From a virus (taxonomy: Duplodnaviria; Heunggongvirae; Uroviricota; Caudoviricetes): 39,684 nucleotides of DNA. The DNA is taken from the IMG/VR virus record IMGVR_UViG_2740892027_000001; one strand, written 5' to 3'. Within the stretch, counting starts at the first letter, position 1. Each line of letters opens with the position of its first letter. The notes below the pieces were generated by a model. It saw only the letters and a program-made list of their open reading frames with translations, searched no databases and had not been told where the DNA came from. Below are positions 1 through 39,684 of this stretch, piece after piece. Position numbers and translations under genes: made by a program.

Positions 1-17
1 AATCATTCCCACTCAAT
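1..17. repeat. Left attachment-site core (attL); 17-bp direct repeat AATCATTCCCACTCAAT
   Basis: Identical 17-mer at 39668-39684; integrase gene lies next to the right copy; phage genes fill the interval. The repeat may extend beyond the window edge. Confidence 0.75.
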
Positions 18-127
18 TATTTACGGATACCATAACCAATTGAGTGATAACACTTTTCCAAATCTCAATTTTCCTCGTACCGTTTTATATACCGTCACAG
101 GAAATCAGTACCATGAAAAATGCTATG

Positions 128-610
128 CTATCTGGTCAGGGTGTCATACTGTTTTTCGCAGACTCTTCCGGCTGCGGCTGCCCGGTCAGCATACTCTGCC
201 AGTTGTCTGTTTCTCTCGAGAGATTTGCTGAGCACGTCGGCAAGCAAAACTCCGGTGTCTGCGGCTGACGTCCCAGCGCCGACAATGGCGTTATACTGCC
301 TGAGCTGCTCACGGATGGCAAAGAGTTGTTGCTGCAACCTGCCAGCGCGAGCGGCAGCATCAAGAGCATCATTGCGCGCCTGGTCGATCCTCTGCTGAGC
401 TTCACGTTCATTGGTCGCTTTCTCCTGTTCGTAGTGCTGACGAACTCTCTCATCTTCAGCTTTGCGGTCTTCCTTCGCCTGCGCATACCCGGCATCGTAC
501 TGGCGACTGCCGTGTATATTCCAGGCAACCACTCCGACGATGAACAGAGCAGCAAGCATCAACACAATAAGCATCTGTTTCCAATATGCTTTTACGAATG
601 CCCAGATCAT
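128..610 (-). CDS. Rz-like i-spanin (lysis)
   Basis: 160 aa; N-terminal transmembrane segment then charged coiled-coil region; start codon overlaps endolysin stop (ATGA); last gene of lysis cassette. Confidence 0.6.
   Translation of the reverse strand: MIWAFVKAYWKQMLIVLMLAALFIVGVVAWNIHGSRQYDAGYAQAKEDRKAEDERVRQHYEQEKATNEREAQQRIDQARNDALDAAARAGRLQQQLFAIREQLRQYNAIVGAGTSAADTGVLLADVLSKSLERNRQLAEYADRAAAAGRVCEKQYDTLTR
136..411 (-). CDS. Rz1-like o-spanin lipoprotein, embedded in Rz in another frame
   Basis: Signal peptide with lipobox: MNVKLSRGSTRRAMMLLMLPLALAG|C, then Pro/Ser-rich mature part; GGAGA Shine-Dalgarno 9 nt upstream of ATG at 411. Alternative starts at 372 or 369. Confidence 0.5.
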   Translation of the reverse strand: MNVKLSRGSTRRAMMLLMLPLALAGCSNNSLPSVSSSGSITPLSALGRQPQTPEFCLPTCSANLSRETDNWQSMLTGQPQPEESAKNSMTP

Positions 611-1236
611 ATAGCCAGCACCTTACTGGCAGTGACGTACCGCGCGCGCCGGTCGTCGATGCCGTTCCGGCCACCATTGATAATCAGAGTTACACGTGCA
701 ATATCGCCGGTATACTTCATGCATCCTTTGCTGGCAAAGAACCACGCCGCGCTACGAGCCGCGTATTCGTCCTGCGCCAGCAGTTCAGGACTCTCCAGCA
801 GGTCAACCTTAAGACCGTTTCCACAGTCACGATAGTTATTCAAACCGGTAATCTGGATAAGTCCGCGACCACGGTAATTCCAGCCATCACCAGAGGCATT
901 GTTACCCATGCGTTTGCTGTACACCAGATTTGCGATCGCGCGCTGGCGCTCAAGTGGCAATGGTGGCTCACCAGCACGGCGGCCCAGTGCGTTAGCCTGT
1001 CCCTGGGTGAGACGCCCAGCCCGAACGAAGTTAGCCAGTCCGGTGACGCTGTAGTTGAAATTTTCCTGCAACCGGTTGAAGCCACCAGACTCATGCCCGA
1101 CCTGAGCAATAAACATTGCCTGATCTTCGGGTTTGCTGATACCAAACTCTTTCATCGCAGAAGTTATATGCGAGAACCAGCGAGCGGCCAGCGCCTCGCT
1201 AATACCAGCAGCTCGCTGGAATTGTTTAATCTCCAT
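607..1236 (-). CDS. Endolysin, glycoside hydrolase family 19 (chitinase-like lysozyme)
   Basis: Motifs VGHESGGF and YRGRGLIQITGLNNY typical of GH19 phage endolysins; start taken at MEIKQFQ (ATG 1236, GAGG Shine-Dalgarno) rather than the longer track ORF 607..1467. Confidence 0.8.
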   Translation of the reverse strand: MEIKQFQRAAGISEALAARWFSHITSAMKEFGISKPEDQAMFIAQVGHESGGFNRLQENFNYSVTGLANFVRAGRLTQGQANALGRRAGEPPLPLERQRAIANLVYSKRMGNNASGDGWNYRGRGLIQITGLNNYRDCGNGLKVDLLESPELLAQDEYAARSAAWFFASKGCMKYTGDIARVTLIINGGRNGIDDRRARYVTASKVLAI

Positions 1237-1534
1237 GTTTAGACCTCGATATTTTGAAAATATGAACAACGTTACCGCGTGTTTTAATAACCGCGGCAAG
1301 CATGACAGCGTTGATAATGACCTCAGATAAATCCACAGCCATTGGCGTGCGTAACCAGATTGCATAGACGACACGAACAGGAATACTTGCCGCAGCAACA
1401 ATAAGGAAATAAGCAAGCCACCCTCCCCATCTTCGATGTTGAGAGCCGTTACGCCGGAATGTGACAACGCGAATTGCTATGCCAGTACAAATAACTGCAT
1501 TGGTGATAAGCAAAAAAAACTCATGCGTTACCAT
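1226..1534 (-). CDS. Small membrane protein of lysis cassette (holin/antiholin-type candidate)
   Basis: 102 aa with hydrophobic segments; sits between holin-like gene and endolysin and overlaps both. Confidence 0.4.
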   Translation of the reverse strand: MVTHEFFLLITNAVICTGIAIRVVTFRRNGSQHRRWGGWLAYFLIVAAASIPVRVVYAIWLRTPMAVDLSEVIINAVMLAAVIKTRGNVVHIFKISRSKHGD

Positions 1535-1925
1535 CGTCTTTTCTCCCCGGAATTAACTCGCGTGGATTATCGGAACGGTGATAGAGCCAGATGCCAATAC
1601 GCACGGCGACAATTGCTGACACGAATGCGCCTGCAGAAAAAACAATCCCTTTTTCAAAAGAGTCCTGCGTGATGGTAGGGATCAGGCTGGCTATGCCGAT
1701 AAGAATTGATGCTGCTGGTTTGTAAAAGAGAAGGCCGCAAAGAAAGCTGATCATCGACAGGAGCACCCGGCGACGGATGGGGTACTCTACTGCAGAGGTA
1801 ACAAAAATTACCGCCCCAGCCAAAGCCCCTAAAGCAACCTCCGGAGGGACACCTGCAATAACCGCAGCAAGAGAACTAACACTAAGCCACTGATTTGAAG
1901 TTTCATTGGTTAGTTGGAATGACAT
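1521..1925 (-). CDS. Holin-like membrane protein
   Basis: 134 aa, several predicted transmembrane helices, immediately upstream of endolysin in same operon. Confidence 0.45.
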   Translation of the reverse strand: MSFQLTNETSNQWLSVSSLAAVIAGVPPEVALGALAGAVIFVTSAVEYPIRRRVLLSMISFLCGLLFYKPAASILIGIASLIPTITQDSFEKGIVFSAGAFVSAIVAVRIGIWLYHRSDNPRELIPGRKDDGNA

Positions 1926-11557: not shown

Positions 11558-14067
11558 TGCGGAATATCTCCGGAGAATCTCTGACGTTTCTGTGTCAGAT
11601 TAAGAACAACGGGAGAACCATCATCTTTCAGCAGATAACCAGTACCAAGTTTCACCAGGTACTGACTATCGCCGTAACTTTGCAAACCATACTGACCAGG
11701 CGGTGTTTTTATCCCGGAGCCGACAACTTGTTCATTCCAAGCCTGATTAACCTGCTTATCGAATTGCTCTGCAGACATTCCCCACGGCAAAAGGACATTC
11801 CCCATTCCGTTATAGTCATGCACGCCACCTGTAGCTACGTTAACAGCCTGTTTCCAGACATCATTGTCAATTTCGCCTGATACCACGCCTTTTTTCGCCA
11901 TCACACCAGCGTAATAGTCCTTTGCGATCTCGTATGCCATTGATGCCCCCTGAGCATCACCAGCAAATGCATCCTTCACCATGTCAGAAAACTCAAGGCG
12001 AAGATCAGCATCTTTAGGCATCGGAATACCTTTCGCATCATCAGTACCTTTACGAGCCGCCGCGCCAGCAAGAATTGTCTGCGCAGCGGTTTCAGGAGAC
12101 ACGGAAACATCCGGATTAAACCAGTTTTTTTCTGCCAAAATACCACCAGGCTTGTCCATCAGTATCCCGGCAACGGCAGCAGATGGAGCGTTGGCACTGA
12201 TCTGCTGTAGTGCTGACATATACACCTGCCCACCACCAGTGCTCTGCCTGATGGTATCGAGATATGCTGCCTGTTGGGAAACTGGAGCATCACGAAAGAA
12301 AACACCGATCTGATTGGCCTCGTCTTTGGAAAAGAACGTCAGTGGAGTGCCATATGACTTAGCAAGGTCACTGACCTGAGCAGCACGCAAGGCAACGCTC
12401 TGTCCAAAGTTATCCTTATTGCTCATGTCGATAGGCTTTGCCTGTCCGGCGGCAAGAGAGAACTGTACAGGATCAGCCTGTCTCTGCTTTATCACCTGAC
12501 TTGCAGCAGACACAACGTTGTCATAAAGAGCGGCTCGTGCCGCATAACCCTCCCCTGTCTCACCAGTATCCGGGCGTAATTGCTCAACATATGCTGTAAT
12601 GCTGCTTGTCGGCATGTTGCGGAAAGAGCCTATATACTGTCCGGCGATTTGCGTATTTCTGAACTCGGTATATCGCAGGTTTCCTTCTCTGACTCCATAA
12701 GCTGCAATAAAATCAGCCTCACCAGGTGGGTTAGGAAATTCAACGCCACGCATATACGCAGCTGTCGCATCGCGAACTTGGCTGTCAATCATCGTTTTAT
12801 ATTCAGCCTGCTGCTGCCGACGCAGTTGATCCGCCTGTCGCATAAAACTTGCCTGCGCCTCAGGAGATGCCGCATCGAATGCTGCATTACCGGTATAGCG
12901 TTTGGTGTTGGTTGGAATTGTTGATAAACCAAGTGCTGCACTGACACCAGCAGTTAACTGCTGATCACTGTATGGCTGGCTACCGTTCTCATGATGGATA
13001 ATGGCTGCACAAAGCGCCTTCAGGGTATCAGGATTAGATGCATCGAGAGGCTCATCAGCAGAAACGCCAAGTTGTTCGCACACTGCTTTGATATACGACA
13101 TAGTGTCATTTTTATCAGTAGGCGGTGCCCAGCGATTAATTATCTCGCTGACGGTATCAATACCCTGTCTCTGATACGACATCAGGTTCCGCCCTAATGC
13201 ACGAATCCCGTGTTCAGGTGTTTCGAATTTAGCAAATCGACCATCATCACCGGTCTGGCCTACCCACGGATTGGTTTTGCTGTATTCGAGATTTCCTGGG
13301 TTATTGTTGCGTATGCCACGGGCACGCTCGGAAGAATCACTATCTGCTACAGCACGGCGAGCTCCAGCAGCAGTATCACTTAACTCGCCATTACTTTGGA
13401 TGAATGCGGTCGCATTGTTTGCCGACCACTGGGACAATGCTGCATCAGCAACCTTCTCTTTAAACTCGATTTTCTTGGCCTGGATTTGCTCGTCGCTCCA
13501 GCCATGCGCAATGCCGTAATCCTCAATTTGCTGGAAAGTTTGCTTATTAGCCAATACGTATGCGGCGTTGTCGCCATACAATGCTGCGGCATTTTTACCA
13601 TTGTTCAGCAGCGTAGCCTGAAACTGGCCTTCTTCGTAGGCATTTATTTGCCCTATCTCGTGCCGCCCGGCCTGCGTAGTGAACTGAATGCGCTGCTGCT
13701 GCGCCTGCTGCATGAAAGCATTACGAGCCTGTTCATCCGGCAGCGACATAGCCAGTTGCTCGACCTTGGCATCAAACTGCTGCGTATACTCCTGACCTTT
13801 TCCAATAGCATTTTTCCCTTTCAGGTTAAGCAAACCTGTTTCAGGGTTATTCAGCAGATCGCTGCTTATCTGGCTTAAGCTAAGAGAAGCATCCTGAGCC
13901 ATAGCAACATTCGCACGCTGTTTTGCCTGCGCAATAATACCTGCATATTGCTCTGCAACATCGCCAAGTACATCACCGACATTTGGTGTCTGAAACGATG
14001 AGAATCCCTGCGTCGAAATCCCTCTGCTCTGAACCTGACGGCCCGATGTTGTTGGTACAACTGGCAT
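11554..14067 (-). CDS. Internal virion (ejection/core) protein with conserved central domain
   Basis: 837 aa; central block RGIRNNNPGNLEYSK...FETPEHGIRALGRNLMSYQ looks like a conserved globular domain; overlaps neighbours by 4 nt. Confidence 0.55.
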   Translation of the reverse strand: MPVVPTTSGRQVQSRGISTQGFSSFQTPNVGDVLGDVAEQYAGIIAQAKQRANVAMAQDASLSLSQISSDLLNNPETGLLNLKGKNAIGKGQEYTQQFDAKVEQLAMSLPDEQARNAFMQQAQQQRIQFTTQAGRHEIGQINAYEEGQFQATLLNNGKNAAALYGDNAAYVLANKQTFQQIEDYGIAHGWSDEQIQAKKIEFKEKVADAALSQWSANNATAFIQSNGELSDTAAGARRAVADSDSSERARGIRNNNPGNLEYSKTNPWVGQTGDDGRFAKFETPEHGIRALGRNLMSYQRQGIDTVSEIINRWAPPTDKNDTMSYIKAVCEQLGVSADEPLDASNPDTLKALCAAIIHHENGSQPYSDQQLTAGVSAALGLSTIPTNTKRYTGNAAFDAASPEAQASFMRQADQLRRQQQAEYKTMIDSQVRDATAAYMRGVEFPNPPGEADFIAAYGVREGNLRYTEFRNTQIAGQYIGSFRNMPTSSITAYVEQLRPDTGETGEGYAARAALYDNVVSAASQVIKQRQADPVQFSLAAGQAKPIDMSNKDNFGQSVALRAAQVSDLAKSYGTPLTFFSKDEANQIGVFFRDAPVSQQAAYLDTIRQSTGGGQVYMSALQQISANAPSAAVAGILMDKPGGILAEKNWFNPDVSVSPETAAQTILAGAAARKGTDDAKGIPMPKDADLRLEFSDMVKDAFAGDAQGASMAYEIAKDYYAGVMAKKGVVSGEIDNDVWKQAVNVATGGVHDYNGMGNVLLPWGMSAEQFDKQVNQAWNEQVVGSGIKTPPGQYGLQSYGDSQYLVKLGTGYLLKDDGSPVVLNLTQKRQRFSGDIPQ

Positions 14068-26608: not shown

Positions 26609-26938
26609 TTTCGTTTCATGCCAGCCTTTAGTCACCCAGCATTGCGAGTCACCATTACACGGGCATGAATTCACAGGAACTCTCTCGCCGCACTTACCGC
26701 AACGTTTTCTGCTGATCGATTTTATACGCCCGCGCACGCGTGCATCATCCTGGCGGATCAGTAACGCTATATACTCACCAAATTCGTAAGGCGCACGCCC
26801 GGGGCGACGCGTGGCACAGTTACGCTCCAGCATTTCAATTTCCTGAGCATCAAGCACAATCTCCAGCTTACGTACACCGGATTCAGCTTGTCTGGCTCTC
26901 TGAGCGGCTTTGCGCTCTGCTGCTGATTTAGCCATCAA
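26597..26938 (-). CDS. Small basic zinc-finger protein in Q-like position (candidate late-gene regulator)
   Basis: 113 aa; Arg/Lys-rich N-terminus, C-terminal CGKCG...CPC cysteine cluster; last early gene before the late operon. Confidence 0.5.
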   Translation of the reverse strand: MMAKSAAERKAAQRARQAESGVRKLEIVLDAQEIEMLERNCATRRPGRAPYEFGEYIALLIRQDDARVRGRIKSISRKRCGKCGERVPVNSCPCNGDSQCWVTKGWHETKLIV

Positions 26939-37389: not shown

Positions 37390-38032
37390 GAAATACACAC
37401 TAATCTATGCAGATCCACCCTGGGTATACCGGGACAAAGCCGCAGATGGTAATCGCGGTGCCAGTTTTAAATATCCGGTTATGAGTGTGATGGATATCTG
37501 CCGCCTTCCTGTGTGGGATTTGGCCGATGAAAACTGTCTGTTGGCCATGTGGTGGGTGCCAACACAACCACTCGAAGCGCTAAAAGTTGTTGAAGCCTGG
37601 GGATTCCGTCTGATGACCATGAAGGGCTTCACGTGGATAAAATGTGGTAGTCGACAACCAGATAAACTGGTTATGGGTATGGGGCACATGACTCGCGCCA
37701 ATAGTGAAGATTGCCTGTTTGCGGTAAAGGGAAAACTACCTACGCGCATTAATGCAGGGATCGTTCAGTCATTTACCGCACCGCGGCTTGAGCATTCAAG
37801 AAAACCAGATATCGTTCGTGAAAAACTTGTGCAATTGTTAGGCGATGTTTCTCGCATTGAACTGTTCGCCAGACAGACGTCTCATGGCTTCGATGTTTGG
37901 GGTAATCAGTGCGAAGACCCGGCAGTGCAACTACACCCTGGATACGCGTTGGATATTGCCGGATTAACAAATGCATTCAGCAATGCTCCGCTGTCACCAA
38001 CAGACAACCAGGGGCGGGAGCGTGCAGCATGA
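37382..38032 (+). CDS. MT-A70 family DNA N6-adenine methyltransferase
   Basis: 216 aa; catalytic DPPW motif (LIYADPPWVY) near the N-terminus; GTG start overlapping the upstream gene. Confidence 0.8.
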   Translation: MTKKYTLIYADPPWVYRDKAADGNRGASFKYPVMSVMDICRLPVWDLADENCLLAMWWVPTQPLEALKVVEAWGFRLMTMKGFTWIKCGSRQPDKLVMGMGHMTRANSEDCLFAVKGKLPTRINAGIVQSFTAPRLEHSRKPDIVREKLVQLLGDVSRIELFARQTSHGFDVWGNQCEDPAVQLHPGYALDIAGLTNAFSNAPLSPTDNQGRERAA

Positions 38033-38223
38033 ACAGGGCATCACCAGCAGATTTAAGGAAATGCCTTGAAACTGCAAACATGCTTGCACACAGCGGGATC
38101 AGGTTTGTTCCAATTCCCGCTGTCACTGATGCTGAATTTGCAACGCTGTCAGCAATATTCGCAGACAAAATTGAATCACTGGCAGCAGAAGCCGAGATGG
38201 AAGAAAATCAGCAGAACTATTAA
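38029..38223 (+). CDS. Small hypothetical protein
   Basis: 64 aa from ATG 38029, which overlaps the methyltransferase stop (ATGA); last gene of the plus-strand operon. Confidence 0.45.
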   Translation: MNRASPADLRKCLETANMLAHSGIRFVPIPAVTDAEFATLSAIFADKIESLAAEAEMEENQQNY

Positions 38224-38226
38224 ACG

Positions 38227-39477
38227 TTATTCTCCCGCCATCCACTTCTCAAACTTCGACGGGGAGAACGGAATCAGATCCGTATGCTCCCCGTCAATCC
38301 AGGAATCAATCATATCTGCCCACTGCTGCAACATGTAGGCGCGCTGTCTGGCGTATTCCGCTTTGTTATATACGGCGCGCACACCTTTCTGCTCATGTGC
38401 CAGAGCCTTTTCAATCCAGTCTGAAGGATAACCAGCCTCATGCAACAACGTACTGGCTGTACGGCGCATATCGTGTACGGTGAAGTCCTGAATATGCTCA
38501 CCATCTTCATTTATTATTTTCACCGTTCTGTCGATCAGTGAGTTCAACGCGGCATTAGATAATGGCTTCCGGAAATTGTAACGACCAGGAACCAGGTATT
38601 CACTTCCACCAGCGCACATCTGCAACCCAACCAATATATCCTGTGCTTGTTTAGGCAGGTAAATAACGTGCGCCCGGCTTCCCTTCATGCGGTCTGAAGG
38701 AATTGTCCATGTCCATTTTTTAAAATCTATTTCATCCCACGTTGCATTGGTGAATTCGCCTTTACGAACCATAGTGATAAGCACCAGCTTTAAAGCCATT
38801 TTCATAGTGCCCATAGCACCAATGGCATCCAGCGTGCGGAAGAACAGACCAATTTCTTCTGGTGTCAGTGTTCGCTCTCGTGGTTTAAATATGGCGATAG
38901 ACGAAGGTTTAATGTCAGCCGCAGGATTAAACAAACCATGACCACGGTCATTGGCATGACGGTATACGCTGCTGATGATCTCCCTGGCCTGCACTGCTGT
39001 TGCCAGGCCGCCGCGTTCGACAATCCGGTCACACAAATCACGAACCATCGATGTGGTAATTTCAGTCATCATTTTGTTGCCAAGAACCGGAAGTATGTCA
39101 CGGTCGATCACCGCCTGCTTCATTGCGCGGGTACTGTCAGCCAGGATGACATGTTTCATATAACTGTCGGTATGTACCGCAAACGTCTCGGCACCACGAA
39201 TCTTTTTGATACCGTCACGTTTAGCCGCAGCCGGTGACTGGCCTGCTTTAAGCAGCTTCTTTGCAGCAATCAGTTCTTCTCGCGCTTCTGCCAGGCTGAT
39301 ACCGTCACGCCCATACTGCCCGATTACCAGTGTTTCGCGGCGACCGTTGATACGGTAGTCATAGCGAAACGAGACCGTGCCTGACGTAAGCACAGCTACA
39401 TACAGCCCGTCACGATCGGAGACCTTGTACAGTTTGTCCTGCGGCTTGAGGTTTTTTAATTTTGTATCGGTAAGCAC
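38227..39477 (-). CDS. int: Tyrosine integrase, P4-type (N-terminal arm-binding domain)
   Basis: 416 aa; N-terminal LTDTKLKNLKPQDKLYKVSDRDGLYVAV...FRYDYRINGRR arm-binding domain; C-terminal catalytic region with HDMRRT and terminal Tyr; next to the right att repeat. Confidence 0.9.
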   Translation of the reverse strand: MLTDTKLKNLKPQDKLYKVSDRDGLYVAVLTSGTVSFRYDYRINGRRETLVIGQYGRDGISLAEAREELIAAKKLLKAGQSPAAAKRDGIKKIRGAETFAVHTDSYMKHVILADSTRAMKQAVIDRDILPVLGNKMMTEITTSMVRDLCDRIVERGGLATAVQAREIISSVYRHANDRGHGLFNPAADIKPSSIAIFKPRERTLTPEEIGLFFRTLDAIGAMGTMKMALKLVLITMVRKGEFTNATWDEIDFKKWTWTIPSDRMKGSRAHVIYLPKQAQDILVGLQMCAGGSEYLVPGRYNFRKPLSNAALNSLIDRTVKIINEDGEHIQDFTVHDMRRTASTLLHEAGYPSDWIEKALAHEQKGVRAVYNKAEYARQRAYMLQQWADMIDSWIDGEHTDLIPFSPSKFEKWMAGE

Positions 39478-39519
39478 AATTCACCCGTATAGAAACCATT
39501 TTCATGACGGTATGAGAGT

Positions 39520-39534
39520 ATACCTTTAAGGTAA
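39520..39534. promoter_or_regulatory. Operator-like site ATACC-tttaa-GGTAA upstream of int
   Basis: One mismatch to the TTACC-N5-GGTAA consensus; 43 bp upstream of the integrase start codon. Confidence 0.45.
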
Positions 39535-39588
39535 TACCGTCACCTGTACCGCCGAAAAATATGGTGTAGAGTGAATAGAAATGAATAC

Positions 39589-39622
39589 ATAAAAACAAAA
39601 ACCCTCTGTAAAAACAGAGGGT
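39589..39622 (-). terminator. Strong intrinsic terminator on minus strand next to the right att repeat
   Basis: ACCCTCTG-tttta-CAGAGGGT hairpin followed by TTTTTGTTTTT on the minus strand. Confidence 0.6.
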
Positions 39623-39667
39623 TGAGTTAGTATCTGAATAGGAATGACTTGCTATGAGTTAGCTGTT

Positions 39668-39684
39668 AATCATTCCCACTCAAT
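39668..39684. repeat. Right attachment-site core (attR); 17-bp direct repeat AATCATTCCCACTCAAT
   Basis: Identical to 1-17. Confidence 0.75.

Follow-up and report, generated by a model that had tools for sequence, protein, structure and literature searches.

Gene content and boundaries of the prophage

By its sequence, the window, i.e., the whole stretch of 39,684 nt analysed here, is a phiV10/epsilon15-like (Uetakevirus) prophage. Identity to Escherichia phage phiV10 amounts to 97.9% at the right end (positions 38000–39684) and 90.9% at the left end; identity of the window ends to Salmonella phage epsilon15 is about 82%. In phiV10, epsilon15 and the window alike, holins, endolysin, Rz/Rz1, attP and int follow one another in this order on one strand. 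The lysis-cassette assignments are taken from the RefSeq annotation of a prophage that is 100% identical over window positions 1–400. The genes next to the two ends are:

128–610, minus strand: Rz-like spanin (DUF2514), final gene of the lysis cassette
about 136–411, minus strand: Rz1 embedded in Rz, assigned by homology to phiV10
607–1925, minus strand: remaining lysis cassette, composed of GH19 endolysin (607–1236), holin (1226–1534) and holin-like gene (1521–1925)
38227–39477, minus strand: tyrosine integrase (P4-type) gene int, co-directional with guaA and the lysis cassette

Both ends of the window carry the 17-bp direct repeat AATCATTCCCACTCAAT (1–17 and 39668–39684). Read on the minus strand, this core spells the final four codons (IEWE) of the host gene guaA together with its stop codon; in lysogens, the RefSeq guaA coding sequence ends at window position 39670. 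In E. coli lysogens, guaA abuts the right prophage end, and guaBA transcription, which shares its direction with int, enters at attR. The attR junction is present in 548 E. coli genomes, and at attR of E. coli and K. pneumoniae lysogens guaA is annotated in full length (1578 nt). For the close relative ZX5, PCR and sequencing have demonstrated integration at the core attgagtgggaatgatt in the 3' end of guaA; phiV10 and epsilon15 are reported to integrate there as well (PMC9782041).

The native gene end is not the same in all hosts. In K. pneumoniae (loci L245, 3090–3150, and L248, 3790–3810) and Salmonella (loci L249–L252, about 2093–2110), native guaA ends with GAG TAA or GAA TAA, attP and attB are identical over just 11–13 nt, and in lysogens of both the last guaA codon and the TGA stop at attR are supplied by the phage. 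The 3'-terminal 15-mer of guaA, ATTGAGTGGGAATGA, was found as an exact match in very distant phyla, namely cyanobacteria, Firmicutes and archaea (loci L005–L124); among the matches listed in this contig scan, most come from unrelated phyla, few have enterobacterial flanks, and Salmonella is absent. Such extreme conservation of the guaA end may explain its use as attachment site by several unrelated elements.

The features of the attachment region, from the left to the right end of the window, are:

1–17, minus strand: left att core copy (attL); the native guaA terminator lies 27 nt further, outside the window
89–96, minus strand: putative arm-type repeat GACGGTAT in the left (Rz-side) attP arm, corresponding to an epsilon15 'integrase' site
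39478–39589, minus strand: region from the terminator to int, with two inverted GACGGTAT copies (39506–39513 and 39534–39541)
39590–39599, minus strand: U-tract UUUGUUUUUA, or UUUUUGUUUUU if the last two U's of the stem are counted, from sequence and scan
39600–39623, minus strand: predicted terminator stem-loop AACCCUCUGU-UUUU-ACAGAGGGUU, from scan, folding, epsilon15/phiV10 annotation and preserved pairing
39634–39649, minus strand: inverted-repeat partner of the att core, AGUCAUUCCUAUUCAG, forming a predicted 16-bp stem with the guaA stop codon inside it
39668–39684, minus strand: right att core copy, ATT GAG TGG GAA TGA TT, with the IEWE codons and the guaA stop (39672–39670)

In the right arm, the core and a partner 18 nt downstream of it (39668–39683 and 39634–39649) form a 16-bp inverted repeat with a GCUA..UAGC mini-hairpin at its tip. 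The stem is conserved in 12 distinct phage variants, which differ by changes between GU and GC and by one compensatory pair, and the epsilon15 record annotates the stretch beside it as 'RNaseIII', a predicted feature. In the lysogen, this stem would fall at the extreme 3' end of the guaA coding region. A second inverted repeat (cactcaatt / aattgagtg, window positions 10–18 and 38–46, with a 19-nt gap) is located on the opposite side of the core. Since each arm holds an inverted partner of the core at a similar distance, RNA from attP would form only one of the two pairings at a time.

A terminator-like hairpin between Rz and int

An earlier note on this DNA had described a strong minus-strand terminator-like hairpin with a T-run inside the right att repeat and before int, and both scan and folding confirm it. 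The consensus scan of 39478–39684 yielded one terminator-like site on the minus strand, with a stem running from 39623 to 39600. On this strand the stem-loop reads AACCCTCTGT-TTTT-ACAGAGGGTT, with 10 pairs (5 of them G-C) and a 4-nt loop, and is followed by the DNA tail TTTGTTTTTA; in the transcript, the U-rich run directly 3' of the stem is UU(stem)UUUGUUUUU. The T-run is conserved across all phage variants. Folded in isolation, the hairpin reaches −16.0 kcal/mol compared to −3.95 ± 1.78 kcal/mol in 200 shuffles (z −6.77), none of which (0/200) matches its energy, and it belongs to the terminator-like sites with the longest stems when the whole window is scanned. On the plus strand, GAGTTAGT comes after the stem, without a U-run, and the predicted terminator is therefore one-directional. 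It is located 44 nt inside the right 17-bp repeat and upstream of int, with 112 nt between the end of the U-tract and the int start. Thus a stable, G+C-containing stem, a U-tract, a sense-oriented position at the end of a transcription unit and preserved pairing, as expected of intrinsic terminators, are found together at this site.

The same position is occupied by annotated rho-independent terminators in both reference genomes, each between Rz and int: regulatory feature 26781–26813 in phiV10 (DQ126339) and stem_loop 26795–26824 in epsilon15 (AY150271). The window hairpin is identical to that of phiV10 and differs from that of epsilon15 by one G-U change. On the other side of the core, the scan found no terminator-like site in 18–127, the segment that separates the left core from the Rz stop (128), and this segment folds no better than shuffles (z −1.74, 12/200), in agreement with the earlier statement that it holds no strong terminator.

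The transcript that the hairpin would close was assigned too broadly in the earlier note, which had the hairpin ending the 'late operon' of the circular phage. Its location between Rz and int and the annotation as terminator in phiV10 and epsilon15 speak for a closing role, but the 'late operon' is not a single unit because other predicted terminators and opposite-strand genes (antirepressor and oac) separate the structural genes and the tail fibre of phiV10 from the lysis cassette. The hairpin would close the lysis cassette. In the free, circular phage it would end transcription of holins, endolysin and Rz/Rz1 and would keep int, downstream on the same strand, clear.

Proposed exchange of terminators upon integration

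The phage integrates into the last 15 nt of guaA, and the 17-bp core rebuilds the guaA reading frame. The distance from the guaA stop codon to the phage hairpin is 46 nt. As the core represents the guaA 3' end and guaA reads in at attR, the phage hairpin is the first terminator after guaA in the lysogen. There it would take over as terminator of the guaBA transcript, insulating int and the prophage. Its chief role in the lysogen is probably to end guaBA transcription and thereby to keep it out of int. We infer actual termination and the insulation of int from the established properties of intrinsic terminators.

The counterpart lies outside the window. Past the left core, host DNA of E. coli reads ...ATTGAGTGGGAATGATT-TGACCCTGCACTATGAATGAAC-AAAACCCTCTGT-TACT-ACAGAGGGTTTTTT on the Rz strand and then enters the convergent gene yfgI. 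The part from AAAACCCTCTGT to ACAGAGGGTTTTTT is the native guaA terminator (−17.8 kcal/mol), located 27 nt past the left core and directly downstream of Rz. Host and phage stems are alike letter for letter, and the sole difference between the two stem-loops is the loop, TACT in the host versus TTTT in the phage. When the unoccupied site is reconstructed, the order guaA, core, 27 nt, hairpin and yfgI is found uninterrupted in 4570 of the 5426 complete E. coli genomes, and about 70 independent attL junctions from IMG/VR show the native hairpin beyond the core. From the Rz stop to the next terminator it is about 155 nt in the prophage versus about 188 nt in the circular phage. The displaced native guaA hairpin, 27 nt beyond attL, would terminate whatever leaves Rz and probably still serves yfgI.

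We consider it highly probable that two statements hold together: the hairpin and its U-tract form an intrinsic (rho-independent) terminator in the int-proximal arm of attP, and integration is a reciprocal exchange of two homologous terminators. Since equivalent terminators would be swapped, no difference in 3'-end formation between prophage and phage is expected. In lysogens with a different hairpin beyond attL, as in C. freundii, the exchange is not one between like sequences.

This modifies the earlier proposal that integration splits the operon from its terminator. Hairpin and Rz do become physically separated, but the lysis genes do not lack a terminator: integration puts the equivalent native guaA hairpin in its place, 27 nt past attL. 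The shielding of int from host read-through, which had also been proposed, is supported by the geometry of attR, and the host transcription concerned is specifically that of guaBA. The boundary of the prophage is thus not interpretable from the window alone; it is the flanks that turn a 'split operon' into a neutral swap of homologous terminators.

Relatives of the hairpin and their origin

Junctions at attL with named hosts were derived from Rz homologues and from one K. pneumoniae prophage record. Homologous hairpins follow guaA in Salmonella, K. pneumoniae, K. aerogenes, Enterobacter, Kluyvera and C. koseri. The native hairpins constitute one family, AACCCTCTG[T/C]-loop-[A/G]CAG[A/G]GGGTT, and the spacer in front of them varies by host. 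The spacing from the guaA stop to the hairpin is:

E. coli: 26–28 nt
K. pneumoniae: 26 nt
K. aerogenes: 21 nt
Kluyvera: 24 nt
C. koseri: 37 nt
Salmonella: 46 nt

In the phages, this spacing is exactly 46 nt in 25 of 25 distinct right arms, which were collected from phages and prophages of Escherichia, Salmonella, Klebsiella, Enterobacter and Citrobacter, and it equals the native Salmonella spacing. Regardless of the present host, the nearest host hairpin for every phage variant is that of Salmonella (34–39 of 44 positions), and epsilon15 and Salmonella have the UUUU loop and the tail TTTTTATTTAT in common. The 46-nt spacer itself, compared by eye and without gaps, is identical to the Salmonella spacer at about one third of the positions, which is not above the expectation for A+T-rich sequence.

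The phage hairpin looks like a guaA 3'UTR/terminator captured from a Salmonella-like host, where we infer the direction of capture. Such a capture fits the general habit of integrative elements to carry the 3' end of their target gene. On balance, we lean towards a common history of the whole phiV10/epsilon15 group, in which a Salmonella-like guaA terminator would have been captured, its 46-nt spacing, UUUU loop and U-tail would have been kept as the phages spread to Escherichia, Klebsiella, Enterobacter and Citrobacter, and the reciprocal swap would have been selected as it protects guaBA, a highly expressed housekeeping operon, and silences int. In one phiV10-like phage from IMG/VR (L241), the stem is unchanged and the loop reads AAAA in place of TTTT, as if the palindromic top of the hairpin had been flipped.

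Conservation of the stem and alternative functions

Across 22 aligned phage and host variants, 95.5% of the cells remain paired; the unpaired cells belong to two variants with a 5-nt loop, which are out of register in this ungapped alignment. One stem pair shows a compensatory change (UA to CG), and 12 cells have changed to a G-U wobble that pairs only in the guaA-sense RNA. The 5' stem arm ACCCTCTG is invariant in six host genera and 13 phage variants, and the flanks diverge. In these variants, the sequence invariance of the 5' arm exceeds what pairing alone requires.

This surplus of conservation raises the question of further functions. It would be accounted for if the stem were part of a functional RNA from the guaA 3'UTR, e.g., a small RNA or a processing signal, and termination a partial role. 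An invariant arm amid diverging flanks would fit such an RNA, as would the conserved 16-bp stem, including the stop codon, just upstream in the phage arm. However, an Rfam scan of 39300–39684 with a permissive threshold gave best E values of 0.45–6, far below gathering scores, the spacer upstream of the hairpin, the usual place of a seed, is conserved neither between hosts nor between host and phage, and no support was found in the literature searched. We regard a functional RNA of this kind as quite unlikely.

Invariance of the stem beyond pairing could likewise be read at the level of DNA, the more so as the epsilon15 record marks a putative IHF site that overlaps the hairpin. The hairpin would then mainly be a part of attP, i.e., an IHF/Int binding or bending site or a cruciform, and its resemblance to a terminator would be incidental. 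Against this stands the presence of the same hairpin after guaA in non-lysogens, where recombination does not need it, as well as the fact that phages have integrated despite a different hairpin beyond attL (C. freundii and IMG/VR lysogens). Moreover, the substitutions are all G-U-compatible in one strand only, and the U-tract is conserved. A mainly DNA-level role appears slightly less likely still than a functional RNA.

Relation to known systems

In phage lambda, sib is located downstream of int, its RNase III site is formed only in read-through transcripts, and int expression differs between prophage and phage. Lambda sib / tI and the window share a hairpin near attP that is separated from a gene by integration, and the earlier note had drawn this analogy. 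It does not hold: the window hairpin, a plain terminator, lies upstream of int, and a host hairpin with the same stem takes its place at the other junction. A sib-like split, by which integration would remove the sole late/lysis terminator and late 3' ends or mRNA fate would differ between prophage and circular phage, could draw on the location of hairpin and Rz on opposite sides of the core, on the lack of a terminator-like site in 18–127 and on putative RNase III sites annotated around attP in epsilon15; it is nevertheless the least probable of the explanations considered and hardly credible, since the prophage Rz transcript would meet an equivalent terminator in the host hairpin (identical stem, with U-run) at nearly the same distance, since an element upstream rather than downstream of int would have no sib-like action on the int mRNA, and since late transcription in temperate phages normally follows excision.

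Closer parallels to the exchange of guaA terminators are found among elements that restore a gene end. In tRNA-targeting phages such as P4, and in phage 21 and e14 at icd, the target gene regains its 3' end from a copy carried in attP; the principle that attP carries this end has reportedly been reviewed by A. Campbell. Likewise, attP of the window phage holds the last codons and the stop of its target, and the gene is rebuilt. In contrast to P4, phage 21 and e14, homology of the window phage to its target falls into two blocks, a core of 11–17 bp and a terminator of roughly 35 nt, with the diverged 46-nt spacer in between. The restored part therefore includes the terminator of guaA.

The guaA 3' end is also occupied by other elements. 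GIsul2 and related genomic islands insert there; their target, GAGTGGGA, is part of the guaA end, and a P4-like integrase adjoins their att (PMC9376610); GIsul2-type islands are unrelated to the window phage. A second guaA-inserted element (loci L148, L096 and L261) exhibits the same order of core, spacer, terminator and int, again with a P4-like integrase, and has the unrelated hairpin AAGCCCGCG-TAAC-TGCGGGCTT. This second P4-like integrase comes after the AAGCCCGCG hairpin in several loci; in C. freundii and Raoultella the hairpin follows guaA without it. This second island with the same layout hints at a design rule common to elements whose targets are the 3' ends of strongly transcribed genes. 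If capture and swap were general, this would explain how the ends of highly expressed essential genes can be occupied without cost, and core, gene-like terminator and int together would be a simple marker of such att sites. In locus L148 (9604–11115), the second guaA element is arranged in tandem with an epsilon15-like prophage. We had also considered the AAGCCCGCG...TGCGGGCTT hairpin as native guaA terminator of Salmonella and Citrobacter; for Salmonella it was ruled out, as the named junctions show the AACCCTCTGT type.

The hairpin was already annotated as a terminator in both reference genomes, and integration at guaA has been published before. The phiV10 and epsilon15 records are silent on the hairpin as a copy of the guaA terminator and as terminator of guaA in the lysogen. 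In the accessible full text, no statement was found that describes the hairpin as such a copy or that mentions a terminator swap. Homology to the guaA terminator and its swap are a small refinement of a known principle and not a new kind of system; the terminator as found is ordinary and by itself matters little.

Putative integrase sites and further signals in the att arms

The window contains 7 copies of the octamer GACGGTAT, as compared to 0.58 expected. Five copies are located in the att arms and in the 5' part of int (89–96, 39209–39216, 39299–39306, 39506–39513 and 39534–39541), the other two at 38958–38965 and 13150–13157. In epsilon15, protein_bind features named 'integrase' are found at places homologous to GACGGTAT copies, and the octamers are likely arm-type Int sites. 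Due to this correspondence, Int is predicted to bind upstream of int, which suggests that it covers its own upstream region. Between the hairpin and int (39478–39589), no match to the sigma-70 consensus was detected.

A sigma-70-like sequence with a 9/12 match, ATGACA-16-TAGCAT, is located on the minus strand at window positions 120–147, at the end of Rz, and points out through attL. It is probably a chance match, because the region has as many such matches in total as its shuffles.

Finally, a 32-kb contig of C. koseri (GCA_050197335.1; L258) contains the attP junction in the order Rz, core, phage arm and hairpin, and the same assembly holds a chromosomal attL (L257). This pair suggests that excised or replicating phage DNA was present in the sequenced culture.
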